64,000 bases of DNA from Candidatus Fimenecus sp. (GTDB taxonomy: Bacteria; Bacillota; Clostridia; Oscillospirales; Acutalibacteraceae), in contig JAZNIQ010000272.1 in NCBI GenBank assembly GCA_045577555.1, forward strand, positions 356 through 64,355. Reading direction: 5' to 3'. The notes under the pieces are model-generated. The model was not told the DNA's origin, did no database searches, and was given only the letters and a program-made list of their open reading frames with translations. Below are positions 36,332 through 56,712 of this stretch, piece by piece. Numbering within the stretch: the stretch's first letter is position 1; every line of letters begins with the position of its first letter. The position numbers and the translations under genes were made by a program.

Positions 36332-36444
36332 AATGGAACCTCCTAATCATTGTGGCAATTATTCCGAAAAATGCTAAAACTATTGCTATAAAAACTAATA
36401 CGTTTTTTCTTTTAATAATATTATACATCGTACAGACAAGCTTT

Positions 36445-36726: not shown

Positions 36727-36791
36727 TTGTCAGAACCCCTTTCTTTGTTCTGACTTAATTATAAAACACTCGCTGTCCCATAAAACGGACT

Positions 36792-37472: not shown

Positions 37473-37586
37473 AAAAATAATGTGGTCGCAGGTCCTTTGT
37501 GAACCTTACAACCACATTGTAATGGATTATTTAATTGAAATGGTCGCTCGCTGAGAGACTTTTAAAACTGTTCGATAAATTGGAAT

Positions 37587-38129: not shown

Positions 38130-38158
38130 AAACTACACCCTCATAAATTCTTATTTAT

Positions 38159-39223: not shown

Positions 39224-39244
39224 ATTAAGCTCCTTTCCTTGGTA

Positions 39245-42200
39245 TTATGAAAGTTCGGATAATTTAGTAAAATGCCCATTATTGCATTTAACGTATATAC
39301 CAAATTGCCCAACCCCAGCATAGATGTCTTTTCCACATGCAGAGCACTTGGCATTGACCTTATCTAAATACTTATTCATTGTGTGTACGGACAGTAAATC
39401 AAACGAACCACATGAAGAGCATTTAAGTATGTATTTTCCGCTGTGACCTCTGCTCAAGTCCATCGGAGCACCACATTTTTTGCAAGTCTCCGTATCGTGA
39501 ATGAATTCGGTTAATCCCTTGCCGGCGGAGTTATTTGCTTTTTCGATAAGTTTAATTCTTGTGCCCTTATCATCTACTCGATAATCTAAATCACAAAGAG
39601 AAGAAATCATTTCATTCGTATGTTTACCTGTGATTCTAAAAATCGGACTTTTGGGTGCAAGGAATCTATAATTCTTATCTTCGAAGAATAATTCCGATAA
39701 TGGAAATCCGTACCAAATAACTCTATCATCAACAACGATAAGTGGGAATGATGCATCCTTTGATTTGAACAAAAGACCTTTCCATGTGTCACTAAGCCCT
39801 GCAATCTCTTTAGTTTTTCCAATGACCGCAACACCGGAACGAGCCTGTATTTTCAATTCATCAGCAATAATATTTTCGTATTGAGGGTTTAGTTTGTCGG
39901 TTGGCAAAGTTATAACTATTTGCTTCTTTGCTGATTTAATATCTTTAAGCAACAATTCCAATGCATCCGTTGCAGAATAATAAGGTTTAATATTCTTGCC
40001 GAAATCGAGAGTTTGAATATATTCGATTAAACGATTATCTTTCATTTCGACAACAGTATTGTTTGCCTTAATATGTTCCAACAGTTTAAAATATGTGTTC
40101 TGTGTTTCGTGGAACTTGTTATTCCAAAAGCGTGTATTAGCTAATGTTATAAATTTGCACCTTGCACGTGTTAGTGCTACGTTTATCAACCGCAACACAG
40201 ACCCATTATCATTTTTGGCAACCAGCCAACCAGGTTTAACAAACGGATAACTTTCTACAGCATCAAACACAACCACATTACGTTCTGAACCTTGGAACTG
40301 ATGAACGGTTGCACAAGAAACGGAAGTGGATTCATTTTGTCTATAATCCTGTATAATTGCACGAATAAGTCTTGTTTGTGCGGCATAAGGAGTTATAACA
40401 CCGACTTTTTCTTCATTTTTGAAATTTAATCCGTTCTGTGCAGATTCGGATTTTAATGCTATTGCAAAAGATAGAAGTGCACTTAAAATATTAAATCTCG
40501 AATTGTCGGCATTTTTACTGGCAGCACAAAATGTTCCATATAAATCCACCAGTGCCATTGCAGTTTCCGGCAACGGGTCACGAGAAACCACAGAATTCCA
40601 TTTTGTAGCGACACTTGAATGGTCTTTCAAAAGGCCTTTATAAATTCGGTGATTTGAAAATCTCGATATATGTGGATGCATTCTGCGTTGTTCGTTCAGC
40701 ATAACGAGCCATGGGTGATTATATATTTCATTATATCTGCAAATGTTTAGAAAAGAGAAAATGTCGCTCTGCAGGATATCTTTTGCCTTCTCTGCCTGCA
40801 CAATAGGTGCAAGTTGTCGGAAATCTCCTACACAAATGAATTTTTCCTTTGAAAATGTGGCGGCACAGAGTAGTTGTGGTACATAGGCCATACTAACCTC
40901 ATCAAACATAACCACATCATACTTTTTGTTGTCAAACAACTTGTCCATGTAAATTTTGGATACAGTCGTTGCAACAACCTGAGCTTTCGCCGTGAGCATT
41001 TGGGCTTCGGCTTTAAGTTTTGTGCGAATACCCTTGAGTATTTTTTCAAGTTCTTTTCTTCTTGCTGCTTTGGCAGTGTCCTGCTTAAACTGTAGTTCGA
41101 TTTTCAGTTTTTTACTTTCTTCTGAAATCGCAAGGTATTGTGTTTTTAACTCAGGGTAGCTATTCAGTGCAAAATTGAACGCTACACAATTATCGTTTTT
41201 ACTTAATTCTTCATCTCTTACATAACCATATCGAAGCACTTTGCCTTTGGAGAGAATAGGTGCTAAGTGGTTTTGTGAAAATTGATTTGAAATTTGCTTT
41301 ACAACATTGTCTACTGAGATATTACTATGTGATACAATGAGCACTGTTTTGCCCATTGAAACAAAGCGCTCGGTCATTTGAGCCATTGTATATGTTTTAC
41401 CGGTTCCGGGTGGTCCCCAAATGACCGTAATATCTTCTTCAAGGGCATGTTGGATTGCTACATCTTGTCCACGCTTTACAGATGTGACATCTGAAACTTT
41501 GTCTGCCAGAGTGGGACCTTGATGAAACAACTTCCATGCAATATGATTGTTGGGATTGATTGCTTTTACTCTATCACGAAGTTTTTCGAGCAATTTCCAC
41601 GGTTCAACACTAATCTGAGCAGAAGGTACAACATCGCCAATATTATGCTCTAAGGATACTATGATTTGAAATCCATCACATACAATAACGGTACCATTAA
41701 CAGTTTCTAAACCACGAATAACAGACACGGGTGCATCATCAGAAAGATATAACTCGGATTCTAGTTCAAATGAATAGCAAAACTCATTTGAGTTTGGGGT
41801 TAATAAACGACCGTCGGTAACTTTGTGTTTTTTGCCTCCATGGTGTTTAAGAAAAAATAGTTCACTCGATATTGCATCAATATATTTATCAAAATCGTGA
41901 TTTTGAGGGGGCGTTTGTTGTTTTTCCTTTTTCTCAGAGTTTTCTTTTCCGATTGCTTCCATCTGTTCTACCGCAGCATTAAATTCCGTCATAAAAAGGT
42001 CTTTTTCTTGCTCGGTCATATCAGCAATTGCAATGCTTTTTAGCAGAGTGGGTTTATTACGTTCACAAAAATAAGTTACGTCAACGGAGTCTCCGTCCAT
42101 GGTTAGAATATTGATAACGAGTGTAAACGAACTTTTAAGCAATCGTCTTTCGTCGATAACTGCTGTGGATTTTGCATTGCCAAAGAAATTTGATTGTCCC

Positions 42201-42409
42201 TTGGGATTAACCGTAGCAACATTACCGAGTTTATCGGTAACGGTGCATTCTTTTACCATATACTTTACCGGGTGTGATTTCCCAATGAAGCTAACGGAAA
42301 ACTCAATATTTATAAAAGGTTCAACGACAGTGATTTTCGGTAGCATAACCTTAAACGGACAATCGTTAAAGGTCTGTTGAACTGATTTGTATTTCCTCAT
42401 TGGTTTCAC
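39245..42409 (-). CDS. Upf1/DNA2-like SF1 helicase with an unknown N-terminal domain, a degenerate PLD-like segment and two C-terminal zinc ribbons
   Basis: 1054 aa. IWGPPGTGKTY, VVMFDEVSM, LNEQRRMHP and VHQFQGSERNVVVFD. The C-terminus has CKKCGAPM..KCSSCG and KCSACGKD..KCNNGH. Confidence 0.8.
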   Translation of the reverse strand: MKPMRKYKSVQQTFNDCPFKVMLPKITVVEPFINIEFSVSFIGKSHPVKYMVKECTVTDKLGNVATVNPKGQSNFFGNAKSTAVIDERRLLKSSFTLVINILTMDGDSVDVTYFCERNKPTLLKSIAIADMTEQEKDLFMTEFNAAVEQMEAIGKENSEKKEKQQTPPQNHDFDKYIDAISSELFFLKHHGGKKHKVTDGRLLTPNSNEFCYSFELESELYLSDDAPVSVIRGLETVNGTVIVCDGFQIIVSLEHNIGDVVPSAQISVEPWKLLEKLRDRVKAINPNNHIAWKLFHQGPTLADKVSDVTSVKRGQDVAIQHALEEDITVIWGPPGTGKTYTMAQMTERFVSMGKTVLIVSHSNISVDNVVKQISNQFSQNHLAPILSKGKVLRYGYVRDEELSKNDNCVAFNFALNSYPELKTQYLAISEESKKLKIELQFKQDTAKAARRKELEKILKGIRTKLKAEAQMLTAKAQVVATTVSKIYMDKLFDNKKYDVVMFDEVSMAYVPQLLCAATFSKEKFICVGDFRQLAPIVQAEKAKDILQSDIFSFLNICRYNEIYNHPWLVMLNEQRRMHPHISRFSNHRIYKGLLKDHSSVATKWNSVVSRDPLPETAMALVDLYGTFCAASKNADNSRFNILSALLSFAIALKSESAQNGLNFKNEEKVGVITPYAAQTRLIRAIIQDYRQNESTSVSCATVHQFQGSERNVVVFDAVESYPFVKPGWLVAKNDNGSVLRLINVALTRARCKFITLANTRFWNNKFHETQNTYFKLLEHIKANNTVVEMKDNRLIEYIQTLDFGKNIKPYYSATDALELLLKDIKSAKKQIVITLPTDKLNPQYENIIADELKIQARSGVAVIGKTKEIAGLSDTWKGLLFKSKDASFPLIVVDDRVIWYGFPLSELFFEDKNYRFLAPKSPIFRITGKHTNEMISSLCDLDYRVDDKGTRIKLIEKANNSAGKGLTEFIHDTETCKKCGAPMDLSRGHSGKYILKCSSCGSFDLLSVHTMNKYLDKVNAKCSACGKDIYAGVGQFGIYVKCNNGHFTKLSELS

Positions 42410-42469: not shown

Positions 42470-44413
42470 TTATAAAATATCACAAGCATTCTTTAAATAA
42501 CCAATCATTTCTTCTTCATGAGCCTTGAAAGCGGTTTCTTTCCAATAAAGACTTGCAACCTTGTCACCATTCTTTTCGGTGAGTTCGCTCATGATACGAA
42601 GTTTAATGCTACCTTTGGCTATCATATCTTTGAAGGTGCTTTTCTTGGCTTCGGGAGACATATTTGAAAATTTGGAGTTTACATTTCTCTGTATGATGCA
42701 GAGGTTACCAAATTGGTCTACTCCGTCTTTCCATTGCTCGAAAGTTCCTTCAGAAGGATTTTGCGGATACCAGTGCTCAACAGAGTTTCTAAATTCAAAC
42801 ACAAAATCACTATATTTTTTCTTGCCATTTTGACGGTCGTAATACCAAAGCAGATAGTCAAGATAATTAAATACAATGTGTGGTGTGTTTACTCCCATTG
42901 CATATTCACCGTCAGCACAAATATCGAAGAAATTTTCTTTAACGGCATCAATAGCAATGTTTTCTGAAACTTCGTCAAATGTGGTTATATCATCATTCTT
43001 TAAGTGTTCGCAATCAGACTCAGATAACCAAATAAGCAGCTTTGTTATCCAGTGCATTACCTTCGGAGAAGTATAAGATACACGCAATGCAGATTGCATC
43101 ATAATGTTTGTTTTGGTTCTCCAATCGTTTGTAGACGCCCATTCGCCAGTTCGGGTAAACTTGGAATTTCTATAATATGGCTTCTTTTTAGATTGCTGAC
43201 CGGAAACATAGAGACTTTTTAAACTCCATTCGCCATCTGCGCTGTCGTTTGCATATTCTCTCTTGACGATATATTTGTCGAACAGGAAACGAGTTCTCAA
43301 CAAGCACACAATAAAGGTGCGAGCAAACTCTTCCTTACTGTCGGAAATCTTTCCATTCGAAGAAACGCCATAGGTAATAACTCTATTAAAAGCATCTAAG
43401 AGTTTCTTGTCATCAAGGAGCTCATCTATTATCTTTGCCTCTGCTTTTTCGTGAGTTATTCCGTTGATGTTTATATATACTTTCAAAGCGTGCAACAAGA
43501 AATATGGGAATTCTATTACGCTTTCAAAACGGACACGAACATCTCCGTCAACATAACCTTCATCATCTTCGACTTTGAAATTTTTATCAATTAAATCAGA
43601 GATGCGATGACCAGTGGTTTCCTGTGTTGCTTCGGTTATTGCTTTTTTATATTTCTGCCAACTGTTTGAGGGCAAACTGTTCCATTCGGAACCAAAGATG
43701 GATTCTCTAACTACATTATTTTTGCTTACAAAGTGCATTTGAACATATCCTGTCATATCACTGCAAGCATCCCAAATTTTTGCAAACAATCCTTTTTCAG
43801 CATCATCATTTAGATAACTCATAAGTGTAGCTTTCAAAATGTCATGTTGCTCTAATTGCTCGCCTCTGGTATTCATTATTTCAAAATAACGGTTGAGGTC
43901 TGTGTTTTCCGGAACTTCAATTCTATAAACGATAACTTTCGAAAGTTTTTTGATAAAAGATTCTTTATCGAAATCGGCTCTTTCCAACTCGTGAGATAAA
44001 ATCTTTATTCCTCTTTGAATACCAGGCTCAATTCTGTCCATATCCAGTTTGCTACGGTTTTCGAGAAGAAGCTCTTCAATGTTTCTAAGAGTATAATTAG
44101 ATTTTTCTCTACAAGCAAAAGTAAGAGTAGGTTTTGCCTTGATTCCAAGACAGTTTAACAATAAATATAGAGAAGTGAGGCGCTGTTGTCCGTCAACAAC
44201 TTCGTATCTACCGTTCTGCTCGGACACAATCAGTGAGCCGATATAGTAGTTAGCATCTTCGGCAACATCTTCTATGTCTTCGACTAATTGTGTAAGTTGT
44301 TTATCTTCCCATGCATATGCACGCTGGTACAGAGGGATAATATACTCCATTTCGGTATCAAAAATATTATTATTTTCACCGATAATATGAAGTTCGGTTA
44401 CTAAACTACTCAT
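42470..44413 (-). CDS. DUF262-DUF1524 (GmrSD/SspE-type) putative modification-dependent nuclease
   Basis: N-terminal IPLYQRAYAWEDKQ and VDGQQRLTSLYLL. The C-terminal His-Me finger-like segment is FRNSVEHWYPQNP..GNLCIIQRNVNSKFSN. Confidence 0.75.
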   Translation of the reverse strand: MSSLVTELHIIGENNNIFDTEMEYIIPLYQRAYAWEDKQLTQLVEDIEDVAEDANYYIGSLIVSEQNGRYEVVDGQQRLTSLYLLLNCLGIKAKPTLTFACREKSNYTLRNIEELLLENRSKLDMDRIEPGIQRGIKILSHELERADFDKESFIKKLSKVIVYRIEVPENTDLNRYFEIMNTRGEQLEQHDILKATLMSYLNDDAEKGLFAKIWDACSDMTGYVQMHFVSKNNVVRESIFGSEWNSLPSNSWQKYKKAITEATQETTGHRISDLIDKNFKVEDDEGYVDGDVRVRFESVIEFPYFLLHALKVYININGITHEKAEAKIIDELLDDKKLLDAFNRVITYGVSSNGKISDSKEEFARTFIVCLLRTRFLFDKYIVKREYANDSADGEWSLKSLYVSGQQSKKKPYYRNSKFTRTGEWASTNDWRTKTNIMMQSALRVSYTSPKVMHWITKLLIWLSESDCEHLKNDDITTFDEVSENIAIDAVKENFFDICADGEYAMGVNTPHIVFNYLDYLLWYYDRQNGKKKYSDFVFEFRNSVEHWYPQNPSEGTFEQWKDGVDQFGNLCIIQRNVNSKFSNMSPEAKKSTFKDMIAKGSIKLRIMSELTEKNGDKVASLYWKETAFKAHEEEMIGYLKNACDIL

Positions 44414-45720
44414 TGTGCACCTCCGTATCCGTTGATTTCCTTAATAGTGTTGTATAGTTCTTTCCACTTTTCGTGTGACGGTGCATCTGGGTCTCGACGT
44501 ACATTTATTTGTAAACCGGAAATCTCGTGGTGCATACGGGCAAGACTGATTTTTGAGAAGATTCCAATTGTATTGGTGTACCTTGAATTCTCATCACCGA
44601 TTGCATATTTGTTTACGCTATCAAAGCCCAGATTTTCCATATCCACACGGAGCATAAATGCCCAAGAGAAAAGTTTTTTAACTGCCATTTCGTCAAAGTT
44701 ATGGAATTTATCATAGTAGCAAAGGAGAGCACAATAAAACAGATTTTTAGTGTATCCAAATCCGGCAGAACCGAATTTTACCTTGTCCATATCTTCGGGT
44801 GAATCGACGTCTTTTCCGCCGCAGATAACTTGTTTTATTTCTTTGAAGCGCGGATTATTGCATATCTCAGCTTTAATATCTCGCAAGAGATACATATAAT
44901 GCTCAACCATTTCAAAGAAATCATTGCCTGCAATAAACGGTTCTGTAATCTGGAAATAAGGCATAGCCTTGCTTGCACGCCTTGCATAGGAATATGTTGA
45001 ACTTTCAGCAATTCCTTTGTAGGTGTCAATTTCTTTTGCTGTGAAGGGTTTGCTTTTGTTACCTCTGCTCCAATTCCAAATTGGGAATAAGTACAAATCA
45101 AATAGTTCCTTTATTTTCTCTGTATCTTTTGCTTCCCATTTCGTAACAGCGTGTTCCATTTCATAAGGGTATTTCTTCATCTCACGAAGATGGTATGCTT
45201 TCAAAAGGTCGTGCGGGTCTAATGCTTTACCTCTTGTGTTTTGAGAGTCGAAAAGTTGGAATGCTTCGGTTACTTTATCAACACAAACGACAACAACTTC
45301 CAAGATATTTTCAAAAGCGTGAATAAAGTCTTTTTTTACATCATCGCTTTTTAATGAAAACCATTCTCGGATGAATGAATAGTTGCGGTGAATATTGTAC
45401 TGAGTAGTCTTATTTGTAAAGTCTTTTTCAAGAATGGAACACTTGAAGTTGGGCTCGATGCATTGCTTTAGAAGCACCAAAGAAATGATTCTTTGCTGCC
45501 CATCAACAATGCCATATATATCATCCTTGTTTTTATGTAAGATAATAGTTCCTATGCGATATTTAAACTCAGTTCTATATCTATCCGCATCACTAATTGC
45601 GTTTGTGATATCAAGAAATAAGTCATCGATATTTTGAATATCCCACTTATACGGTCTTTGATAATCTGGGATGTTCAAATTCATACTGAGCAGTTCATTT
45701 ATGCTTTTAATCTCAGCCAT
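44410..45720 (-). CDS. DUF262 (ParB-like NTPase/nuclease superfamily) protein without DUF1524
   Basis: IPDYQRPYKWDIQNI and VDGQQRIISLVLL. A 4-nt overlap (ATGA) links it to the downstream DUF262-DUF1524 gene. Confidence 0.75.
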   Translation of the reverse strand: MAEIKSINELLSMNLNIPDYQRPYKWDIQNIDDLFLDITNAISDADRYRTEFKYRIGTIILHKNKDDIYGIVDGQQRIISLVLLKQCIEPNFKCSILEKDFTNKTTQYNIHRNYSFIREWFSLKSDDVKKDFIHAFENILEVVVVCVDKVTEAFQLFDSQNTRGKALDPHDLLKAYHLREMKKYPYEMEHAVTKWEAKDTEKIKELFDLYLFPIWNWSRGNKSKPFTAKEIDTYKGIAESSTYSYARRASKAMPYFQITEPFIAGNDFFEMVEHYMYLLRDIKAEICNNPRFKEIKQVICGGKDVDSPEDMDKVKFGSAGFGYTKNLFYCALLCYYDKFHNFDEMAVKKLFSWAFMLRVDMENLGFDSVNKYAIGDENSRYTNTIGIFSKISLARMHHEISGLQINVRRDPDAPSHEKWKELYNTIKEINGYGGAQ

Positions 45721-45763: not shown

Positions 45764-48700
45764 TTACGCTACCGAACCAACCCAACCGTAGCCTTGAACT
45801 GCCATATCTACGAAGTGATTAATAAGCAGGTCAACCTTGGAATTAAAGGAAACCTTGTCGTAAGATTCGGGTAGGTCAGCATCAAGTGAGTCTTTAACAA
45901 CTTTGATAACACGACCCTTCGGTTGCTCATCCTTATACCAATCAATCATAAACAGACTTTGCTTATTCTCGGTCAGTTTCTTATAAAGGTTCTTTGCCGA
46001 AAGTTTTACTTTCTGTTCTTCTGCTTTTGTCAGTTTCTTACCGGCAATAAGCAGGTCGTAGATTTCCAGTTCTTCTTCAGTAAGACCTTCGGTATTGGCT
46101 CTTTTTTCTTCCTTCTGCAGGTCTTCAAGCAGTTTTACAAGCTGCTCGTAATAGTCCTCGTTCTCGGAACTGCCAGCATTGTAAGAATCAATGATGTTCT
46201 TATAACGCTGTGAGAATTTAAGACGAGTACGGTTCTTATTAAGCATCTGCAAAAGTGCCTGCTCGATAAACTTTTTAAGGTCATCAATCTCGATTGCCTT
46301 GTATTTGGCAGTACGGATTTCTTTTCGCAGCTCATCAGCATCGATTTTCGAAAGGTCAATTACCTTTGACTGATAGATAACAAGCTCTTGCTCATCTTCC
46401 ATGTCGTTTTCGGCAGTAACGCTTGAATCCAAGAGTTGACTCATTCTCATTCGCGCTCTTTCGACCTTTTCGTCATCGATTGTGCGGTAAAATAGGCCGT
46501 GCAAATATACAAGCGGAGAAAATTTCTCGTTAAACCATTTCTTTTCAAACACTTCGGGTTTTGAAGCTTCATAAAGGTTCATCAAAGTATTGAGTATAAC
46601 CTTAAACTGCTCTGTACCTTGGTCTTTTGCTACGATAGTATCGTAAGCACTTCTAAGCTCATCAAGTCTGTCCAATGTGTTGGATTCGCCAATAATCTTA
46701 TCCAGACTGATGTCAAGTGATTGCAAGAAGGTTTCTGCTTCAACAATGGTCGCATCGATATATTCAATTAGCTTGTCGATGTCCTTGGCAGGATACTCTG
46801 TACCGTCATCGCCGGTAGCATATTCGGACAGTGCCTTCTTCATATACTTGAAGACGTTTACATAGTCCACAACCATACCGCTGGACTTGCCTTGATACAA
46901 ACGGTTCGCACGAGCGATTGCCTGCATCAATGTGTGTCCCTTCATAGGTTTGTCCAAATACAAAGTAGAAAGATTTTCAACGTCAAAACCGGTCAGCCAC
47001 ATAGCACATACAAATACTAAATGTAACGGGTCGGTAACGTCCTTGAATCTATCTTCGATATCTTTACCATCGGGAGTGATGGCATTCATCTTTGCTCGGT
47101 GAGTGGCAATATCAAGTCCTTGCTTTGCAAACTTATCGTTCTCATCCGCATCTTCGGAAATGATAACTGCCATTTCCACCTTGTTCATGTAATCAAGGAT
47201 TGCGGTAAATCTGTCTCTCTCTTCCTTGGTTTTAGCAGTGTTTCTTTCCTTGATGACGTTCTGCTTTTCGATTGCCCAGTAATGTTGCACCTTGTCGTAC
47301 ATTTTAACGGCGGTAAACTTATCTACCGATACAACCATACCCTTACCCAAGAAACCTCGTCTGGGGAAGTGATAAGCGATATCCTGAGCGATTTTATCGA
47401 GTCTGTCTTCACGCTTGATAACCTCTAAAATGCGGGAAGCAGAATTTTCGAGCAATCTGGTTTCGTCTTCGTTGAGATTCTCTTCTTCGATGATATCTAA
47501 TACGTCATCGTCGAGGAAGTCATTTTGAAGTCCAACGGACGGAACACGTCTTGAATAATAAAGTGGAACGGTAGAACCGTCAGCTACAGACTGTGCAAAG
47601 TTATACTCTGAAACGTAGTTTCCGAACCATTGGTTAGTAAGACGCTTGGCACCGAGCAGAGGTGTTCCGGTAAATGCGATGTAATTAGCATTAGGTAATG
47701 CCGTTCTCATATTCTCTGCAAGGTCTTTATATTGAGTTCTGTGTGCTTCATCAACAAGCACTATGATATCGTCACGGGTGGAAAGGACAGGATACTGTTT
47801 TCCTTTTTCGTAACGGAATTTATGTATGAGAGTAAAGATAAAGGATTTGTTTGTCTGTAAGAACTCTCGCAGTTGCTTGCCGTTCTTTGGCTGGCATTCT
47901 TCGCCTTCACCGATAACACCGGTGCGAACAAAGTTCTTATGTATCTGAGTATCAAGGTCATCACGGTCGGTGATAACAAGGAAGGTAAAGTTTCCGTGTA
48001 GCTTTCTTTTAACCTTGCGGGCAAACATAACCATAGAGTAGGATTTGCCTGAACCTTGTGTGTGCCAGAACACACCAAGTTTACCTTTGAGTTCTTTGCG
48101 GTTCTCCATAGATTCCATAAGATTATTAACACCTAAATACTGGTGGTTCTTTGCAATAATCTTAATGGACTCATTCTGGAAGAGGATGAAATTTTCTATG
48201 TAGTCGATAAGGCGATTCTTATCGAGCAAACCATCCACAAAGAAGCGAACCGAACTGTTATTGGCATCACTTACATTTTGCAGAGCTTCACGGTCAAGAC
48301 CTTCTTTTTCGGATTCAACCTTTAACCACTCGAAGAAATGATTATAGGTGGTATTAAATGCACCCAGTCTTGTTTCAAGACCGTTGGAGAGCACACATAT
48401 CTGATTGAATGCAAAAAGGTTAGGAATATCCTTCTTGTAGTCCTGCAGATTTTTGTTGTATGCTTCCTCAACCTTAACAATACTGTTCTTGAGTTCAATG
48501 AACACAAGGGGCAGACCGTTTACAAAGATAAGAATATCAGGTCTTCTGTAATATGCTTTGCCTTGTATCCACATCTGTGAAACAGCAGTAAATTTGTTAT
48601 TGGTCGGCTTATCAAAATCAATGAGCTTTACAAAATCAAAGTCTTCCTTGCTGTTTTTGCGAACGGTGATTTTAATTCCGTTGCGAAGTTGGTTGTATAA

Positions 48701-48988
48701 CTTGTAGTTTGTTGCAACAATATCCGTTCCGGTAAAATCACGGCGAAGGTCTTTGACAATATTTTTAATATACTGCTCGTCGATAGTGGGGTTTATCTTT
48801 TTAAGAGATTCTTCAAGAACGCTCGGCAAAACACACTCCCTTTTAGAGGAGCGTCTCGTTCCGTCGTTCAAATCATCTCGCTTGTTTGGGTCGGCATCAC
48901 AGGTTATGATGTCGTACTCGAAAGGAGCCTCTTTCAGTTTTGAGAGTATGGCACGTTCAATATCGTCTTCTGATATGAAGTTTCTCAT
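45764..48988 (-). CDS. hsdR: Type I restriction enzyme R subunit
   Basis: 1074 aa. VFWHTQGSGKSYSM (Walker A), VLVDEAHRTQY (DEAH), and an N-terminal PD-(D/E)xK-like IFVNGLPLVFIELK. Confidence 0.9.
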   Translation of the reverse strand: MRNFISEDDIERAILSKLKEAPFEYDIITCDADPNKRDDLNDGTRRSSKRECVLPSVLEESLKKINPTIDEQYIKNIVKDLRRDFTGTDIVATNYKLYNQLRNGIKITVRKNSKEDFDFVKLIDFDKPTNNKFTAVSQMWIQGKAYYRRPDILIFVNGLPLVFIELKNSIVKVEEAYNKNLQDYKKDIPNLFAFNQICVLSNGLETRLGAFNTTYNHFFEWLKVESEKEGLDREALQNVSDANNSSVRFFVDGLLDKNRLIDYIENFILFQNESIKIIAKNHQYLGVNNLMESMENRKELKGKLGVFWHTQGSGKSYSMVMFARKVKRKLHGNFTFLVITDRDDLDTQIHKNFVRTGVIGEGEECQPKNGKQLREFLQTNKSFIFTLIHKFRYEKGKQYPVLSTRDDIIVLVDEAHRTQYKDLAENMRTALPNANYIAFTGTPLLGAKRLTNQWFGNYVSEYNFAQSVADGSTVPLYYSRRVPSVGLQNDFLDDDVLDIIEEENLNEDETRLLENSASRILEVIKREDRLDKIAQDIAYHFPRRGFLGKGMVVSVDKFTAVKMYDKVQHYWAIEKQNVIKERNTAKTKEERDRFTAILDYMNKVEMAVIISEDADENDKFAKQGLDIATHRAKMNAITPDGKDIEDRFKDVTDPLHLVFVCAMWLTGFDVENLSTLYLDKPMKGHTLMQAIARANRLYQGKSSGMVVDYVNVFKYMKKALSEYATGDDGTEYPAKDIDKLIEYIDATIVEAETFLQSLDISLDKIIGESNTLDRLDELRSAYDTIVAKDQGTEQFKVILNTLMNLYEASKPEVFEKKWFNEKFSPLVYLHGLFYRTIDDEKVERARMRMSQLLDSSVTAENDMEDEQELVIYQSKVIDLSKIDADELRKEIRTAKYKAIEIDDLKKFIEQALLQMLNKNRTRLKFSQRYKNIIDSYNAGSSENEDYYEQLVKLLEDLQKEEKRANTEGLTEEELEIYDLLIAGKKLTKAEEQKVKLSAKNLYKKLTENKQSLFMIDWYKDEQPKGRVIKVVKDSLDADLPESYDKVSFNSKVDLLINHFVDMAVQGYGWVGSVA

Positions 48989-49010
48989 AATCTCCCTCCC
49001 TTTTTCAAAA

Positions 49011-50060
49011 TTACAATTTCATAAATGCCAAAATATCTTTGAAATTATTACTGATATGCTCTGACAAAGGTAGTCCTTTGTTATCTTTGATAAACTCAAA
49101 GAACTCAGGCAAATCCAATAGGATTCTTTGAATAATGCCTTTTTCTTTAATTTGGTGCACGGCATATACATCGTCACCAATAGCGTCTATTTGGGCCTGT
49201 AAGTCTTTCTGATAGTTGTTCCAATACACAGAATATGAAGTTTGTCCATCAGGGGAATAAACCTTTGCTCCAATATCGTGTTCAGGTTTCTCTTTGTAAT
49301 ACACAATATCATCATCAGAAAGAACAATGAAAATTAACTTGTTTTTATACTGGGAATCTTTTACTACTTCCATTACTTCAAAAATGCAATTCCTTGACTT
49401 CAAGTAATGGTCGCTTATAAGCATTATTACAAAATCGTGTGTTTCAATAGACTGCATAAAGTTTTTAAAACTTTCATGGTATTTAACATCACGAACATCA
49501 CGAGAAATTTTCACTTTACCTTCAACAGTTGGTTGAAACTTTTCTTCCACCAAATCGGCAATGTCCGAATCTTTTTGGCAATACGAGAGGAACACTGTTG
49601 TGAGTTTTGTTTCTTCTTTCTCTGGTACATCATCGGCATCTATAAGTTCCATTTCGAGATGATTCCTTAGTATATCTACAAACGGTCCGATAGCTTTTCT
49701 GATAAATGCGGAAATGAGGTCTTTAAATTTCCTACTACTTGAATATCCTTCTCCTAAACTATACAACTGTCTTTTGCCTGACAAAGCATATTCTATTAAC
49801 TGATAACCATAATCAACCAAATCTTCTTCATTGTCAGGTAATGTAAGCATATCGCTCCAAAATTTATTTTCGTATATTTCATCAAAATCATAATCATTCT
49901 TATGACAGCTTTTAATATACTCTGCTATGACTTCAGTATTATTGATAAAGTCATAGTACATTTTTATGTAGTTAATTTCTTCTTGCGAATCAACTTTCAG
50001 CATCTGAGAAGACAGAGTTCTGTATTTTAGTGATATTTTCTTAAGTTCGCTTTTTTTCAT
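49011..50060 (-). CDS. TIR-domain protein with an unknown N-terminal helical domain
   Basis: The C-terminal half VFLSYCQKDSDIADLVEEKF..HDFVIMLISDHYLKSRNCIFEVMEVV is a bacterial TIR pattern with the conserved Glu. The gene is nested between hsdS and hsdR. Confidence 0.7.
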   Translation of the reverse strand: MKKSELKKISLKYRTLSSQMLKVDSQEEINYIKMYYDFINNTEVIAEYIKSCHKNDYDFDEIYENKFWSDMLTLPDNEEDLVDYGYQLIEYALSGKRQLYSLGEGYSSSRKFKDLISAFIRKAIGPFVDILRNHLEMELIDADDVPEKEETKLTTVFLSYCQKDSDIADLVEEKFQPTVEGKVKISRDVRDVKYHESFKNFMQSIETHDFVIMLISDHYLKSRNCIFEVMEVVKDSQYKNKLIFIVLSDDDIVYYKEKPEHDIGAKVYSPDGQTSYSVYWNNYQKDLQAQIDAIGDDVYAVHQIKEKGIIQRILLDLPEFFEFIKDNKGLPLSEHISNNFKDILAFMKL

Positions 50061-50515
50061 ATTGTAGTGCCTCCACAGATAGGACAGTATATTCCTATTT
50101 CTTTATCAAAGTTTTGAGTTTTTACATTCACATTACAACAATCCATCTTTACCAACTCATAAACTTTTGACGGTTCAAACAGTTCTTTTTCCGGTTCTGG
50201 TTTTGATTTTTTGGTTGTAACTTTTATAAATTTGCTTTTATTAAGTCCTTTGAAACTTTTATCAAGCATCGCATCAATTTGTGCCAGAGCATAGTTTGCA
50301 GCGACTTGTTGCATTTTTTCTAAAACCTCGGTGCAAAAGAAGGTGTTGGTGTCATTGGGGAGACCGCAGATAGGACAGAAGAAGTGCAGATGTTCTTCAT
50401 TTTCGTAAGTATCCTTATGCAACATAAATCTGTTCTTACAAAAATCACATTCCATTTCTAAATATCCATCTTCATCTAACGGGATATCTATTGTAAAGGT
50501 TTTTGTGTCGCTCAC
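50057..50515 (-). CDS. Double zinc-ribbon small protein
   Basis: 152 aa. CDFC..(24 aa)..CPIC and CC..(19 aa)..CPIC. A 4-nt overlap links it to the TIR gene. Confidence 0.55.
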   Translation of the reverse strand: MSDTKTFTIDIPLDEDGYLEMECDFCKNRFMLHKDTYENEEHLHFFCPICGLPNDTNTFFCTEVLEKMQQVAANYALAQIDAMLDKSFKGLNKSKFIKVTTKKSKPEPEKELFEPSKVYELVKMDCCNVNVKTQNFDKEIGIYCPICGGTTI

Positions 50516-50517
50516 AC

Positions 50518-51729
50518 CTACACCTCCAATTTGCCACTCATTAAGCGCGGTAATAATAGGTCACGCTGTTTGATAAGGTTTTCGTTTTCGTTCATAACAT
50601 TCTTAATTTGAGCAAAGATATCTTTTGTACAATTATGGAATTCCTGAATCAACTCACGATTAGGTAGTAAGAATTTCATTTTCTTAATAATAGTCGAGTT
50701 GACCGCATTTCCTATTGCAGAGGTGTTGCCTAAATTTTGATAATTGAAGAGCTTCAAATATAGGTAAGTATATTCTAATAACTCCTTGTCATTAGTTTTA
50801 AAGTGTGCTATTGCTTCATTTGTGCAAGATTGTTTTGTTGTGATAGATACACGACCAACAGATAATTTAAAACTAAGTAAAACTGTATCTTCTTCAACCA
50901 TTGGCATATTTACCTTTTTGATTGCTTCATCAGTTAAATATTCCGAAGATTTTGTTACAAACATGTTGTCTTTCATATCGGAAATTGAAACCCACAAAGC
51001 ATCGTCTTTATTGGTTGTGAAATAATCAAATTGCTTTCTATCAGGAGTTCTACCAATGGTAATATCGAAAAGATTTTGTGCTTGATAAATTTCCCAACCT
51101 TTGGGAATACCATTATCAAATTCTGCGTTTTCATAGCCAGGGAAACGGAAACGGACGAACCATTCTTTGTAAAGATTCTCTGCCATCTGCTCCAACAACT
51201 TAATACGCTTGTTGTTGTTTTCGATGAGTTCATCGTATGAGGAAAGAACATTGGCGATTTTGTTCTGGATTTCAATGCTCGGAAGAGGAACCTTTATTTT
51301 AACTAATTCTTTTCCACGAATTCCGGCTTGTGCACACTGATTAATGATTGTTTTTACTGGGTTATAAGGAAGTTGAAAAAGATAGTAGTAAAACCAAGGG
51401 TTACAAATTTCTTCGTTTAATCTGACTCTTATAAGATGAGATTCAAAGGTTGTTTCCTCGCCTAATTGTTTAACAATAGAACACTTTCCGGCACCTTCTG
51501 CCACAAGTGATTGTCTCGCAAATAACAAATCGTTTTCTTGAACAAGAAATTTTTCCTTCTCTTTTTGAGAAAGTTGAACTCGTTCCATAGGCATATCGCT
51601 AATGATATCGTTAGCGAAAAGTTCGCCCATGTTAATCATTTTATATCCTGCGCCACGAACAGCACTTGGACGAGACACACCGTTTGATGAAGGGATGGAA
51701 TAGAGTTCACCAAATCTTACATATTCCAT
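50518..51729 (-). CDS. hsdS: Type I restriction-modification S (specificity) subunit
   Basis: 403 aa with two TRD halves separated by the conserved helix LPSIEIQNKIANVLSSYDELIENNNKRIKLLEQMAENLYKEWFV. The C-terminal repeat is LLPRLMSGKLEV. Confidence 0.85.
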   Translation of the reverse strand: MEYVRFGELYSIPSSNGVSRPSAVRGAGYKMINMGELFANDIISDMPMERVQLSQKEKEKFLVQENDLLFARQSLVAEGAGKCSIVKQLGEETTFESHLIRVRLNEEICNPWFYYYLFQLPYNPVKTIINQCAQAGIRGKELVKIKVPLPSIEIQNKIANVLSSYDELIENNNKRIKLLEQMAENLYKEWFVRFRFPGYENAEFDNGIPKGWEIYQAQNLFDITIGRTPDRKQFDYFTTNKDDALWVSISDMKDNMFVTKSSEYLTDEAIKKVNMPMVEEDTVLLSFKLSVGRVSITTKQSCTNEAIAHFKTNDKELLEYTYLYLKLFNYQNLGNTSAIGNAVNSTIIKKMKFLLPNRELIQEFHNCTKDIFAQIKNVMNENENLIKQRDLLLPRLMSGKLEV

Positions 51730-51732: not shown

Positions 51733-53799
51733 TTACTCTCCCAACAAATCTTTCAAATTATTATTAATCTTTGTTGCCAAAGAGTATGCTTCTTCATTAA
51801 GGGTTGAAAGAACTTCATTGAGTGAAAGCATCTCGGACTTGAACTCTTCTTCGGTCATTCCGTCATCTTCGATGACAACACCAACGTATCTACCGGCATT
51901 AAGAGAATAGTCTTGGTCTTCAATGCCATCTTCACCTTTAAGGGATGCAGCTTTGCAAAGACCGATTACATCTCTGTATTCGCCATCAGGGAAACGTTCA
52001 ATGAGCCAAAGAATGTTATCGATGAAATAAAGAATATCATCTGCAATATCTTTGATTTCCTTATGCAAATCAAAGTATTCAAATGCGGTCTTGTGTAATT
52101 TAGGTTCATCATCTAAATTATGATGAATCCCTCTTTCTACAAGGTGCAACTGCTCCCATAATTCTTCAACATCTTTTGCAAACAAAGACCTTTGCGCCTG
52201 AACGTTTGTTGTAGTAGATATAGCAGCAATAAAATCATCGTGTTTGAAGGAGTCATATCCCATATAATCCGCAGGTTTTTCTTCGGATTTATAGCCATCA
52301 TCATTAAATACTTCAGCGCATCTGTTATTAACAGCTGTAGCAAGTTTGCTAACCTTGATTGCAAAATCATTTTTTAAAGAAATGTACTCATTAAACAAGG
52401 TTTGTACTGTTGCTTTATATTCATCCACAAGGTCTATAAATGATTGCTTGTCACCGTTGTAGAGTCTCGTAATAATACCTAAATTCTTAATCTGCTCGTC
52501 AGAGAATTTTCGGTGTGCTCGGTCAACCTGAGTGAACACGTTGCGGGCATCGATAAAGAGGATGGTATCCTTTTTATCGGTCTGCGGTTTGGTCTTGTCA
52601 AAGAACCAAAGGGTCGCAGGGAGAGTAACCGAAGTGAACATATTGGAAGGAAGCGTTACCATCTGAGAGATAACACCTTCTTCAATCAGTTTCTTTCTGA
52701 TTTCATATTCGGAACCCGAAGCATCGGATGCAGAGTTTGCCATAACAAGTGCAGCACGGCCATTATCGTTCAAAGCAGAGGCAAAATATCCAATCCAAAG
52801 GTAGTTTGCATTGGGTACGGTTTCTTTCTTATCAGAGTCTTTCTTTCCACTCTTGGTCTTATTTCTGGGCACACCATAGGTATTGAAACGAGCATCGTCG
52901 ATAACCTTTTCTACAACAACCTCATCTACGTTGAAGGGAGGGTTTGCCATAACATAGTCAAAAGAACCAAAAGCATCGTAGGGGTCAGAATAGAAAGAGT
53001 TTGCTTCGGTAATCTCACCACGAACATTGTTGAGGAGAAGATTCATCTTTGCCAACTTTACGGTATCGGGTTCTTTTTCAACACCGTAGCAACGGAATTT
53101 CATCTGTTCTTCGGCGCTTGCATTATGCTCGTGCATATAACGTGCAGCCTGAACGAACATACCGCCTGAACCACAAGCAGGGTCTAAGAACTTCTTATCA
53201 CCACATTCGGGGTTAAGAACATTTACCATATAACGAACAACGGTAGCAGGCGTATAGAATGCGCCACCGTCTTTACCTTCGGACAATGCGAAGTTGCCAA
53301 GGAAGTATTCATAAATTTCACCAAAGATATCAATGGTGCAGTTTTCGGGAATATCCTTAAAAATACGAACAATGTTAGAGAGCAGTTCCGGTTCTTCTTC
53401 GGGAACGAGTTGCGCATAAACCTCTTTGGGAAGCACACCGGACATTTTGGGGTTCTCGTCCTCAATAGCTTCCATTGCTTCTTTTACGATGATTGCCTTG
53501 TTAGCATCATCGGGAGCATTGTTTATATAATCGTAATATGCCTTTTCAGGGAGGTAGAAACCGCACTTCTCGATGGAGATTTCTTTAATAGTCTTTTCGG
53601 CTCTGCCACCCTTGGTGCGGTTATATTCTGCTTCGATTTCATCCTTGTGTTGCTTGAAGAGAATATCAGCATAGCGAAGGAAGATAAGACCCAAGATAGG
53701 CTGACCGTATTTATTGGCGGCAAGATGAGCACCTGCACGAAGAACGTCGGCAGCGTGCCACAGATTTTCTTTTAATGTTTTAAGTTCTCTATCGGTCAT
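51733..53799 (-). CDS. hsdM: Type I R-M N6-adenine DNA methyltransferase subunit (long form)
   Basis: 688 aa. FLDPACGSGGMF (motif I), VMANPPFNV (motif IV) and the HsdM N-terminal LWHAADVLRG-like segment. Confidence 0.9.
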   Translation of the reverse strand: MTDRELKTLKENLWHAADVLRAGAHLAANKYGQPILGLIFLRYADILFKQHKDEIEAEYNRTKGGRAEKTIKEISIEKCGFYLPEKAYYDYINNAPDDANKAIIVKEAMEAIEDENPKMSGVLPKEVYAQLVPEEEPELLSNIVRIFKDIPENCTIDIFGEIYEYFLGNFALSEGKDGGAFYTPATVVRYMVNVLNPECGDKKFLDPACGSGGMFVQAARYMHEHNASAEEQMKFRCYGVEKEPDTVKLAKMNLLLNNVRGEITEANSFYSDPYDAFGSFDYVMANPPFNVDEVVVEKVIDDARFNTYGVPRNKTKSGKKDSDKKETVPNANYLWIGYFASALNDNGRAALVMANSASDASGSEYEIRKKLIEEGVISQMVTLPSNMFTSVTLPATLWFFDKTKPQTDKKDTILFIDARNVFTQVDRAHRKFSDEQIKNLGIITRLYNGDKQSFIDLVDEYKATVQTLFNEYISLKNDFAIKVSKLATAVNNRCAEVFNDDGYKSEEKPADYMGYDSFKHDDFIAAISTTTNVQAQRSLFAKDVEELWEQLHLVERGIHHNLDDEPKLHKTAFEYFDLHKEIKDIADDILYFIDNILWLIERFPDGEYRDVIGLCKAASLKGEDGIEDQDYSLNAGRYVGVVIEDDGMTEEEFKSEMLSLNEVLSTLNEEAYSLATKINNNLKDLLGE

Positions 53800-53802: not shown

Positions 53803-54702
53803 TTATACCTCCAATACTGCCAAATACTCGCCAAGGCGTTCGTTTACATATTGGGCAATCATATCTATCATCTTGTTCGGGTTGCCATCTTTGTAATAGG
53901 CATCGAATGCATCGTAATAGCGCTTACGGTCTGCAAATTTTACGTTAATGGGCGGATAACCGCACTTGATAAGTTCAAGATTCATCAAAAGACGACCTGT
54001 ACGACCGTTACCGTCAATAAACGGATGGATGCCTTCAAATTCCAAATGGAAACGAGCAACACGCTCGATATCGTGAAGAACACCTTTTCGCTCGTTGTCG
54101 ATGGCAAGAAGCTCTGCCATTTTGGGTTCAATCAGATACGGTTGCACTGGCTCTGTGAAAGCACCCATTATGCGAACGGGAATTCTACGATAAACACCTT
54201 TATCTTCAGGGCGATTCATCAGAACCAGAGCATGGATATTTTTAATTACACTCTCAGACAGGGGCATATCCTTTTTAGCAATATCTTGAACATAAAGGAA
54301 TGCATCACGATGACCAACTGCTTCCAGATGGTCTTTGAGAGGTTTCTTATCAATAGTCATACCTTCCAGTGCCATAGCAGTCTCTTTTAGAGTAAGAGTG
54401 TTTCCTTCAATCGCATTGGAGTTGTATGTGAACTCAACCATAAATTCGTCGCGCAGACGTTCTACTTCACCGGCAGTGAGGGGGCGCATGGCGGCGAGTT
54501 TTTCTTTTTTATAATCAACTTCCATTATTACGTTGTTCTTGCTACGGCGACCGTCAAGGGGTTTAAGTGCATTTTCGGGAACCATATATAATTTGCCCTT
54601 GCGAATTACACCTTCAACCTTGCCTTCGGCACATAAAATACGGGCTCTGCGAGCAGAAATGCCCCATTTTTCGGCAGCTTCAGATACTTTAATATAGTTC
54701 AT
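53803..54702 (-). CDS. Fic-family protein with an N-terminal HTH
   Basis: Fic motif HPFIDGNGRTGRLLMN. The N-terminus IKVSEAAEKWGISARRARILCAEGKV is MerR/excisionase-like. Confidence 0.85.
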   Translation of the reverse strand: MNYIKVSEAAEKWGISARRARILCAEGKVEGVIRKGKLYMVPENALKPLDGRRSKNNVIMEVDYKKEKLAAMRPLTAGEVERLRDEFMVEFTYNSNAIEGNTLTLKETAMALEGMTIDKKPLKDHLEAVGHRDAFLYVQDIAKKDMPLSESVIKNIHALVLMNRPEDKGVYRRIPVRIMGAFTEPVQPYLIEPKMAELLAIDNERKGVLHDIERVARFHLEFEGIHPFIDGNGRTGRLLMNLELIKCGYPPINVKFADRKRYYDAFDAYYKDGNPNKMIDMIAQYVNERLGEYLAVLEV

Positions 54703-54923
54703 TCGGAATCCTCCTAAAATGATTACATTATAACAGAATACAGTATATCACATTTCGGGAATAATAGCAATAGGAGTTTTCAAAAAATTCAAATATTATT
54801 CCTCAAAATATTTTGTGAAGGAATAGTCAATCTTGTCAATCGAATTTCTTGATTTAAAAACAAAAATACGCGAGATTCATGATAGTACCTTATTTCAATA
54901 TTTAATTTTTTGGAGGAATTATC

Positions 54924-55280
54924 ATGAAAAACACACAAATAAAAAGAGGCCAAATCTATTACTGCGACATTCCCAAAACAGCAGGCAGCGTGTACCATTC
55001 ACGCCGTCCCGTGCTTATTATCTCAAACAATCGCAATAATTTTTTCTCAAGATGCATCACCGGAATTCCGTTGACATCGAAACTGGGAAAAAATACCTTG
55101 CCGACGCATGTAACCATACATACAGATTGTGGGGTGAGTCGTGAATCGATTGCGATGTGCGAAAATGTTTGCAATTATTCGAAAGAGTCACTCTGTGATT
55201 TCATATGTGAAATTGATGAGAACTCAGAGGTGATGAAGCAGATTGAAAAAGCATTACTAATTCAAGTTGGAATGGCCTAA
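54924..55280 (+). CDS. MazF/PemK-family toxin, solitary
   Basis: IKRGQIYYCDIPK..SRRPVLIISNN and TGIPLTSK. The terminator agcaaaaccatcgg..ccggtggttttgct follows at about 55284-55320. Confidence 0.75.
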   Translation: MKNTQIKRGQIYYCDIPKTAGSVYHSRRPVLIISNNRNNFFSRCITGIPLTSKLGKNTLPTHVTIHTDCGVSRESIAMCENVCNYSKESLCDFICEIDENSEVMKQIEKALLIQVGMA

Positions 55281-55719: not shown

Positions 55720-56712
55720 ATGCATATCTCAACATTAAAATTCATCGATTTATTTGCTGGTATCGGTGGTATCCGTTTAGGATTTGAACAAGCATTTGGA
55801 AACGAAATTAAAACTGTCTTTGTTAGCGAGATTGATGCGAAGGCACAGGAAACTTATAAAGCGAATTTTGGAACAGATGTATCCATCGCTGGTGACATTA
55901 CTCAAATCCCCGCAGAGAGCGTTCCAGAGTTTGACATCTGTCTTGCAGGGTTTCCTTGTCAAGCATTTTCCGTTGCTGGAAAGAGACTCGGATTTGAAGA
56001 CACAAGAGGAACTTTGTTCTACGATGTTGCTCGCATTTGTAAAGAGCACAAACCTAAAGTTATTTTCTGCGAAAATGTCAAAGGACTTCTTAAACATGAC
56101 AAAGGAAAAACTTATCAGGTTATCAAGAACACATTCGAGGAATTAGGTTATACGTTATATGAGAAAGTTCTTAATAGCAGGAATTTTGGTGTACCGCAAC
56201 AGCGTGAACGTATTTATATTGTCGCATTCCGAAATGATATAGATTCTTCTGACTTTGAATTCCCAAAGTATACAGATAGCAGCAAACGTCTTCGTGACAT
56301 TATCGAAGAGACTCCTGTTGATGGAAAATATTATCTCTCTGAACAGTATCTTAACTGCTTAATAGAACACCGCAGACGCCATGAAGAAAAAGGACACGGT
56401 TTCGGATATGAGGTTTTAAGTTGGGACGGTGTATCTAACACGCTCGTTTGTGGCGGTTCTGGAAGAGAAAAGAATCTTATTATTGACGAACGCCAGAAAG
56501 ATTTTTCCAATGTTAAAAACAAGGGCAAAATCAACGATAAGGGTCTTCGAGTTCTAACACCAAGAGAGATGGCAAGACTACAAGGATTTGGTGATGACTT
56601 TATTCTTCCAGTTGCCGACACCCACCTTTATAAACAGATGGGTAATTCCGTATCCGTACCAGTTATCTGTGCTATTGCAGAGAAAATTAAAGAAGTATTG
56701 GATTCTCAATAA
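55720..56712 (+). CDS. dcm: DNA (cytosine-5) methyltransferase
   Basis: Motif I FIDLFAGIGG, motif IV GFPCQAFSVAG, motif VI ENVKGL, motif VIII QRERIYIVAF and motif X GNSVSVPV. Confidence 0.92.
   Translation: MHISTLKFIDLFAGIGGIRLGFEQAFGNEIKTVFVSEIDAKAQETYKANFGTDVSIAGDITQIPAESVPEFDICLAGFPCQAFSVAGKRLGFEDTRGTLFYDVARICKEHKPKVIFCENVKGLLKHDKGKTYQVIKNTFEELGYTLYEKVLNSRNFGVPQQRERIYIVAFRNDIDSSDFEFPKYTDSSKRLRDIIEETPVDGKYYLSEQYLNCLIEHRRRHEEKGHGFGYEVLSWDGVSNTLVCGGSGREKNLIIDERQKDFSNVKNKGKINDKGLRVLTPREMARLQGFGDDFILPVADTHLYKQMGNSVSVPVICAIAEKIKEVLDSQ

Follow-up and report, generated by a model that had tools for sequence, protein, structure and literature searches.

A zinc-ribbon and TIR gene pair between hsdS and hsdR: a predicted TIR-armed variant of the candidate phage defence family PDC-M14

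The operon and its embedded gene pair

Two genes, one for a double zinc-ribbon protein (ZnR) and one for a TIR-domain protein, are wedged into the hsdS–hsdR interval of a type I restriction-modification (R-M) operon in a 64,000-nucleotide (nt) stretch of Candidatus Fimenecus sp. DNA (contig JAZNIQ010000272.1), hereafter the window. All parts of the operon lie on the minus strand. The ZnR gene (50057..50515) begins with a GTG codon, encodes 152 amino acids (aa) and corresponds to PDC-M14A of PADLOC. The TIR gene (49011..50060) encodes 349 aa, made up of an adaptor, the TIR domain and a helical tail. Upstream of the pair lie hsdM (51733..53799, 688 aa; Pfam HsdM_N and N6_Mtase, PADLOC MTase_I 2e-192) and hsdS (50518..51729, 403 aa; two stretches of Pfam Methylase_S, for two target-recognition domains, and PADLOC Specificity_I 4e-86). 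Downstream lies an intact hsdR (45764..48988, 1074 aa; Pfam HSDR_N, SWI2_SNF2, T1R_D3-like and T1RH-like_C, PADLOC REase_I 1.7e-170), whose product is the sole member of its 90% cluster. By Pfam and PADLOC each of the three Hsd genes is full length, which bears out the placement of the pair within a type I R-M operon that an earlier note on this DNA had proposed.

The spacing of the genes was also as the note had read it. The TGA stop codon of the ZnR gene and the ATG start codon of the TIR gene share the four nucleotides ATGA (50057-50060), the gap between hsdS and the ZnR gene is 2 nt (50516-50517) and the gap between the TIR gene and hsdR is 22 nt (48989-49010). The ribosome-binding site of the ZnR gene, GGAGGTG, lies inside the last codons of hsdS. 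Between 49000 and 50600 we found no terminator-like site and no promoter-like site better than chance. Because of the tight spacing and the lack of such sites, transcription of the pair together with the R-M genes is almost certain.

The co-directional array opens with a gene for a 299-aa Fic/HTH protein (53803..54702, minus strand; Pfam Fic 4e-19 and HTH_17, PADLOC PDC-S04/SoFic-like), 3 nt upstream of hsdM. The best sigma-70-like match upstream of it (54810..54839, minus strand; TTGACA-18-CAAAAT, 10/12) is a possible promoter of the operon, as a consensus match of a kind no commoner in the region than in shuffled sequence.

Family membership and domain make-up

The earlier note had left both the zinc-ribbon protein and the N-terminal ~140 aa of the TIR protein unassigned. 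Both are in fact assignable. ZnR matched PADLOC PDC-M14A with an E value of 2e-38, residues 1-149 falling on positions 1-149 of the 152-position profile, and residues 1-141 of the TIR protein matched the N-terminal half of PDC-M14B with an E value of 2.8e-31 (profile positions 3-143 of 267). Five B models matched the TIR protein and none ran beyond ~profile position 152, showing that the canonical C-terminal part of PDC-M14B is missing from it. On these profile matches, the pair reads as a TIR-armed, effector-swapped variant of the catalogued candidate family PDC-M14.

PDC-M14 is one of 145 phage defence candidates of Payne et al. (2024, bioRxiv 10.1101/2024.01.29.577857), where it is presented as untested. 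The candidates were selected by 'guilt-by-embedding', that is, they sit within BREX, DISARM or type I R-M systems. The family is tabulated in the same work as CAS_00078, FAM_02625>>FAM_00494, with a count of 247; a rarer cassette, possibly the TIR form, that joins the same A family to another B family (FAM_02625>>FAM_00644, count 14) fell under the cut-off. In our literature searches 'PDC-M14' occurred in no paper's main text, and we found no later validation or renaming.

The TIR protein is organised in four parts. In the AlphaFold2 (AF2) model (predicted local distance difference test, pLDDT, 86.9), helices span aa 3-141 with a pLDDT of ~90, a floppy linker follows at aa 146-150, and the TIR domain is followed by a helical tail at aa 270-346. 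The all-alpha adaptor (aa 1-145, 49626..50060, minus strand) is the part shared with PDC-M14B and has a conserved motif, G105-Y106...D114...F119...P126-F127; it matched nothing in Pfam, NCBIfam or PDB sequence profiles, and Foldseek runs against PDB and BFVD returned matches to the TIR domain only. The TIR domain itself (aa ~152-255, 49296..49607, minus strand) was detected by Pfam TIR_2 (aa 156-250, E 2.4e-11), and its fold is supported by Foldseek matches to the TIR domains of BtpA, MyD88, TLR2, RUN1 and L6 with probabilities of 0.97-1.0. The C-terminal helical extension (aa 256-349 with the stop codon, 49011..49295, minus strand) has modelled helices at 270-294, 301-326 and 332-346. The module of TIR domain plus tail (aa 137-348) is ~31% identical to TIR proteins of Bacillus cereus plasmids, which have another N-terminus and adjoin a large ATP-binding protein. 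An exact-sequence look-up of the window's TIR protein found no record.

The earlier note had pointed to a conserved glutamate in a CIFEV context as needed for NADase activity. This residue, Glu228 (codon GAA, 49377..49379, minus strand; C225-I-F-E228-V within 'SRNCIFEV'), was invariant in 40 homologues of 59-93% identity, as were other TIR motif residues. In profile alignment it falls on the glutamate of the plant TIR motif 'WCLDEL' (7xoz), a position that we take to be catalytic from published plant and bacterial TIR work. The conservation that the note had seen is therefore real and Glu228 is putatively catalytic; NADase activity itself is predicted.

ZnR carries eight invariant cysteines, C23/C26/C47/C50 and C126/C127/C144/C147, in the patterns CxxC...CxxC and CC...CxxC. 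In the AF2 model (pLDDT 78) they belong to two beta-ribbon units: ribbon 1 (aa 18-55, window 50351-50464, minus strand) and ribbon 2 (aa 120-150, window 50066-50158, minus strand). The ribbons are parted by a helix (aa 62-91) and a Lys-rich, low-confidence linker (aa 92-119). The protein is acidic, with a pI of 5.0, which favours a protein ligand over nucleic acid; ZnR is thus probably not a nucleic-acid binder. It matched no Pfam or NCBIfam family, and PDB profiles and Foldseek searches of PDB and BFVD gave only generic ribosomal zinc ribbons. Ribbon 1, 'IPLDEDGFIEMECDFCKNRFMLH', resembles the Hsp33 zinc redox-switch domain over a short stretch, though not significantly (E 0.05).

We then asked what follows the adaptor in other proteins. 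A search with the adaptor only, against 1.84 billion representative proteins, returned 168 proteins, of which 112 extend at least 70 aa beyond the adaptor and were clustered, the window protein included, by this C-terminal part. Ninety-nine of them carry the canonical domain, nine (the window protein among them) carry TIR, and a few are singletons. The canonical C-terminal domain of PDC-M14B is helical and ~120 aa long, and 80 members scanned shared no common Pfam family. One singleton illustrates a third effector type: P0363 (304 aa) joins the adaptor to a Hypoth_Ymh/TIGR02391 domain with an 'RNPSAH' motif, a domain that we assume to belong to the HEPN superfamily, where Anantharaman and colleagues reportedly placed it in 2013. 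Another protein, P0378 (297 aa), is an in-frame fusion of ZnR (aa 1-149) and adaptor (aa 150-293) with no effector beyond, and may be truncated. Across the family, the zinc-ribbon partner and the adaptor are thus constant, and the terminal domain is exchangeable. Since the TIR domain occupies a slot that other terminal domains fill elsewhere, this arrangement argues that it is a toxic output rather than a signal generator.

Genomic settings and borders of the cassette

To find out where the pair occurs, we gathered 22 loci from species genomes, 80 from metagenomes, one from IMG/VR and 11 from exact look-ups, about 110 in all. Clustering of the TIR proteins at 90% identity gave 31 lineages, 29 of them with informative flanks. 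In every locus long enough to show both, the ZnR and TIR genes are adjacent and in the same order. With this constant adjacency, and with 155 ZnR homologues and 374 homologues of the TIR protein in the database, the pair is not a chance coupling of open reading frames (ORFs).

The earlier note had suggested a survey of hsdS–hsdR insertions for such pairs. They do recur there, in 13 of the 29 informative lineages, yet the remaining 16 lie outside type I R-M: five have a ZnR-TIR pair followed by a 244-aa third gene and 11 are in other settings. Within type I operons the pair always occupies the hsdS–hsdR interval, with no gene between it and hsdS in 24 of 32 loci, or between it and hsdR in 21 of 27. 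Other co-embedded genes may flank it there, namely an RVT_1 reverse transcriptase, a KAP NTPase with a Ser/Thr kinase, and proteins of 167, 258 and 646 aa. By their HsdMR proteins the host operons divide into two lineages, with 55-65% and 37-42% identity to those of the window; the ZnR and TIR proteins are 54-65% identical in both. The order Fic-hsdM-hsdS-ZnR-TIR-hsdR of the window is repeated in L057-L075, with HsdR proteins 37-40% identical to that of the window.

Outside type I operons the pair lies directly behind type II R-M genes (NgoPII with Dcm in L013, Bpu10I with a methyltransferase, MTase, in L056), behind another MTase (L055), and directly behind Eco57I/MmeI-like type IIG enzymes (L016, L084, L104 and L011, the contig of L011 being too short to be informative). 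Further settings are a region with TraG and NlpC/P60 that resembles an integrative and conjugative element (ICE; L017), an IS256-type transposase (L021) and an Abi_C protein (L109). With L011 included, the cassette has R-M genes beside it in at least 17 of 30 lineages, and it usually sits close behind such genes in the same orientation. Canonical PDC-M14 pairs also occur alone, as on a Clostridium estertheticum plasmid. In L017, a chromosome region of Christensenellaceae, a canonical pair and a ZnR-TIR pair (3378-4614 and 10001-11499) lie ~5 kb apart, each with its own ZnR paralogue.

The 244-aa protein is encoded directly after the TIR gene in L018 (6107-6841), L019, L020, L073, L105 and ~20 metagenome loci. 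It has no Pfam, PADLOC or NCBIfam match and may be a third component. Its clade never occurs within a type I operon and lies in islands with type III R-M, LlaJI, AbiH, SIR2 and Schlafen/AlbA_2 genes; the gene is absent from the window. In a rough neighbour-joining (NJ) tree the deepest branches are all non-type-I, and a large derived group takes in the lineages embedded in type I operons. Nested inside that group, with intact genes, are the third-gene clade and the L001 lineage, which are apparent exits from type I operons.

The borders of the cassette could be read from four loci. L013, L016, L055 and L056 share a DNA identity of 88-91% from the ZnR start codon to the TIR stop codon only (9998-11511/11526). 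Of these, L016 and L056 share a backbone on both sides and differ in the R-M genes immediately upstream. A comparison of the window with L116 gave 87.9% DNA identity over the ZnR-TIR block, 74% over hsdM and 70% over hsdR; against L005 and L057, the ZnR-TIR block alone was detectable at the DNA level. The cassette is ~1.5 kb long, typically lies 0-50 nt from an upstream co-directional gene and has no flanking regulatory DNA of its own. This 1.5-kb unit moves or persists as a whole, with the start and stop codons of its own genes as its limits.

Several of the operons that carry the pair are themselves mobile. L116 (3678-18839), the closest relative on a long contig with a TIR protein 89% identical to that of the window, is an element that also carries Mob_Pre and TnpV. 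Its type I operon embeds seven genes (DUF5655, 296-aa, 160-aa, ZnR, TIR, KAP NTPase and Ser/Thr kinase), so that two other genes stand between the TIR gene and hsdR. The loci of the P0032 allele (L023-L032) have the layout HTH-TnpV-HTH-hsdM-167aa-hsdS-ZnR-TIR-RT-hsdR-...-large serine recombinase. In gut metagenomes and isolates this element, a highly mobile, 'stuffed' type I R-M island, adjoins a wide variety of chromosomal genes, and the allele is indexed in 713 blocks of the assembly collection. A phage origin of the pair was considered and rejected: the annotated phage collection gave no match, and the lone IMG/VR contig resembles a recombinase-borne R-M island.

Other genes of the window were recorded alongside the operon. 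Downstream of hsdR by 43 nt lie two overlapping GmrSD-like genes (42470-45720, minus strand), encoding GmrSD_N+DUF7834 (436 aa) and GmrSD_N+GmrSD_C (647 aa). They match the PADLOC models HEC-06, Orf5 and SspE-like, and such genes also follow hsdR in L050 and L070. Beyond them (34342-42409, minus strand) come a superfamily 1 (SF1) helicase (1054 aa, MkoA-like, with Cys-rich C-terminal ribbons), a Macro-domain protein (38159-39223) and an ADP-ribosylglycohydrolase (ARH; 34342-35283), so that enzymes handling ADP-ribose share a strand with the TIR gene. We rejected the Macro-domain protein and the ADP-ribosylglycohydrolase as ThsA-like partners; they are 10-15 kb away and are not near the pair elsewhere, the one Macro-like gene close to a pair being a partial ORF at the contig edge of L050. 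A BREX-like cluster on the plus strand (8173-21072) comprises an 836-aa protein that matched no family, BrxP (PAPS-reductase type, E 7.7e-232), BrxC/PglY (1416 aa), PglZ and BrxL, a composition that we take to resemble type 4 BREX; past it lie an Aminotran_5 gene (21275-22405) and a DUF2971 gene (22402-23379). Divergent from the operon and close upstream of it are genes for a PemK/MazF-type toxin (54924-55280, plus strand) and a C-5 cytosine DNA methyltransferase (55720-56712, plus strand).

Proposed working, rival explanations and known systems

Taken together, these results suggest that the pair is a self-contained, promoterless, two-gene abortive-infection-type cassette of PDC-M14 with a TIR NADase effector, a reading to which we give a probability of roughly 0.6. 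ZnR and the adaptor of the TIR protein would form a complex, as the ATGA translational coupling and the one natural A-B fusion hint. Within the complex the TIR domain would stay off until a cue from the phage is detected, whereupon the TIR domains would associate, hydrolyse NAD+ via Glu228 and arrest the infected cell. In the hsdS–hsdR position the cassette would be transcribed and mobilised with the R-M operon and would add a second layer of defence behind restriction, with no obligate dependence on HsdMSR. The habit of sitting in or behind constitutively expressed R-M operons may have a simple, non-mechanistic reason, the need for read-through transcription, with co-mobilisation as another. 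The 16 lineages outside type I operons, the basal branches that are not type I, the homology that stops at the cassette borders and the stand-alone pair on a plasmid argue clearly for the autonomy of the cassette.

Several observations weigh against this reading. ZnR is without fold or sequence relatives of established function. The TIR domain is an inferred NAD+ hydrolase on the strength of one conserved glutamate and the fold, and some TIR domains are scaffolds or makers of signalling nucleotides. The defence role of PDC-M14 is that of a candidate, by guilt by association. That the ZnR-TIR block is better conserved than the Hsd genes could be due to stronger purifying selection instead of exchange. 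The R-M flanking seen in at least 17 of 30 lineages exceeds what plain autonomy would give and hints at some functional link. Finally, the cassette can decay: in the type I-embedded locus L012 (10417-11492) the TIR gene is broken into a 184-aa adaptor ORF and a 150-aa TIR ORF, an apparent pseudogene.

The earlier note had proposed a different role, that of a guard in the manner of PrrC or Ronin: the ZnR-TIR pair would be latent on the surrounding R-M enzyme and freed when a phage inhibits restriction, with NAD+ depletion as a suicide backup. Its position in the hsdS–hsdR interval in all 13 type I lineages, mostly straight after hsdS, the co-transcription with an intact hsdMSR, and the Fic-M-S-Z-T-R order kept across operons with diverged HsdR proteins would all fit, as would the lineages that lie immediately behind type II or IIG R-M genes. 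PrrC masked by EcoprrI and RonA held by HsdMS are precedents. However, the neighbouring enzymes (type I, NgoPII, Bpu10I, Eco57I-like, type III and LlaJI) are structurally unrelated, and one masking partner for all of them is therefore implausible. Nor does the pair contain a domain that is known to dock on R-M enzymes, such as an ABC-ATPase; the same cassette sequence stands behind different R-M genes on one backbone; some lineages lie in an ICE-like region, beside a transposase or in defence islands of other kinds; and the linkage is facultative, stand-alone occurrences being on record. A dedicated guard of type I enzymes is not supported, given the count of 13 in 29 lineages, the non-type-I basal branches, the swapping of R-M neighbours at the cassette borders and the canonical pair alone on a plasmid, and a PrrC-like role is neither required nor specific to type I. 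We consider such a role unlikely, while conditional coupling to R-M status in the TIR clade is possible.

An addiction module of the toxin-antitoxin (TA) type, with TIR as toxin, ZnR as labile antitoxin, stabilisation of the mobile R-M island as its function and phage defence as a secondary effect, seems equally doubtful. It would account for a small upstream gene that overlaps a larger gene with a toxic-type domain, for the frequent mobile carriers (serine-recombinase/TnpV elements at many sites, Mob_Pre elements, the ICE-like region and plasmids) and for effector swapping around a conserved partner, which is typical of TA families. But ZnR at best binds the conserved adaptor and not the variable toxin, so that a sensor or regulator fits better than a classic antitoxin, and the great majority of neighbouring genes are defence genes. 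Autoregulation of their own promoter is the norm for type II TA modules, whereas no promoter or operator region travels with this cassette. Least probable of all, and very improbable, is Thoeris-like signalling, in which TIR would make an NAD-derived second messenger for an effector elsewhere, such as the Macro-domain protein or an unrecognised partner. Weak PADLOC ThsB matches (4.1e-5 and 3.2e-3), confined to the TIR core, the Macro-domain protein and ADP-ribosylglycohydrolase 10-15 kb downstream on the same strand, and the conserved 244-aa gene right after the TIR gene in one clade are what speaks for it. Against it, no SIR2/SLOG or Macro-TM protein stands next to the pair in the window or at other loci, the Macro and ARH genes are not neighbours of the pair elsewhere, non-signalling terminal domains replace TIR in relatives, and neither the window nor any type I-embedded lineage has the 244-aa gene. 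The earlier note had already set Thoeris aside for want of a ThsA-like partner, correctly: the pair's neighbours are hsdS and hsdR, and the only Macro-domain protein, ~10 kb off, has no PADLOC match.

A further idea, which we regard as tentative and rather improbable, is that the cassette acts as a 'restriction-failure alarm', either monitoring a cue common to infections that get past any type of restriction or sensing anti-restriction proteins directly. If true, this would account for the repeated occurrence of a promoterless cassette immediately behind R-M genes of types I, II, IIG and III. It would then, on the same slender odds, be a portable counterpart of PrrC, Ronin and PARIS, independent of R-M type and equipped with a new zinc-ribbon sensor. 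The repeated placement behind unrelated R-M systems would allow two ideas to be cleanly told apart, borrowed transcription and mobility on the one hand and a response to defeated restriction on the other.

Genes embedded in type I R-M as defence candidates, and the PrrC precedent, are already published and formed the route by which PDC-M14 was catalogued. What is new here is the three-part modular architecture, the exact borders of the cassette and an R-M association that reaches beyond type I yet is facultative. If the working proposed for the self-contained cassette is true, the pair would represent a small, portable, three-part immune design (zinc-ribbon partner, helical adaptor and swappable killing domain) whose sensing part is unrelated to any characterised one, in a family common in gut and rumen Clostridia. 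The TIR form would offer the easiest biochemical read-out in the family, the loss of NAD+. It would be the natural entry point to PDC-M14 because the commoner form has no recognisable enzymatic domain.

Among known systems, prrC offers a positional parallel, presumably lying between the hsdS and hsdR homologues of the prr locus. In both cases the gene of an abortive-infection-type effector lies inside an intact hsdMSR operon (EcoprrI being type Ic) and is co-transcribed with it. The precedent that the earlier note had drawn on stands as regards embedding in EcoprrI and masking by it, confirmed from papers. The near-exclusive embedding of PrrC in type I R-M (Payne et al., bioRxiv 10.1101/2024.01.29.577857) has no counterpart here, where over half of the ZnR-TIR lineages lie outside type I R-M. 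PrrC is also a single protein that combines an ABC-type NTPase with an anticodon-nuclease (ribonuclease) domain, whereas here there are two proteins and a TIR effector, and neither ZnR nor the TIR protein gave a Pfam or PADLOC match to an ABC-type NTPase or anticodon-nuclease domain. Ronin consists of RonA and an HsdMS decoy, with hsdS and hsdM in the absence of hsdR and a small membrane effector that is always linked (Silas et al. 2023, bioRxiv 10.1101/2023.04.06.535777). Like the pair, it links a cell-killing effector genetically to subunits of type I R-M, and it is itself proposed to fire on anti-restriction proteins. By contrast, the window has an intact hsdR and, as effector, a soluble TIR protein of 349 aa whose linkage to type I R-M is facultative.

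Thoeris resembles the pair in having a bacterial TIR-domain protein in a defence island, and the likeness to the ThsB model is weak. Unlike in Thoeris, there is no ThsA, and TIR is fused to a family-specific adaptor, paired with ZnR and placed in a slot that relatives fill with non-TIR domains. SPARTA TIR-APAZ, TIR-SAVED and the TIR effectors of CBASS and Pycsar are sensor-coupled TIR NADase effectors, and the likely resemblance is that a sensing module controls the assembly of an NAD+-destroying TIR domain. The E. coli TIR-I to TIR-IX systems have likewise been described as sensor-coupled TIR effectors (PMC11350192). The difference is that ZnR and the ~145-aa adaptor have no detectable relation to Argonaute, SAVED, STING, CARF or the E. 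coli TIR partners. The canonical PDC-M14 pair shares with the window's pair the full-length A match, the adaptor of B and the A-then-B order with overlapping stop and start codons; what sets the window's pair apart is that the ~120-aa canonical C-terminal domain of B is swapped for a ~200-aa module of TIR domain and helical tail.

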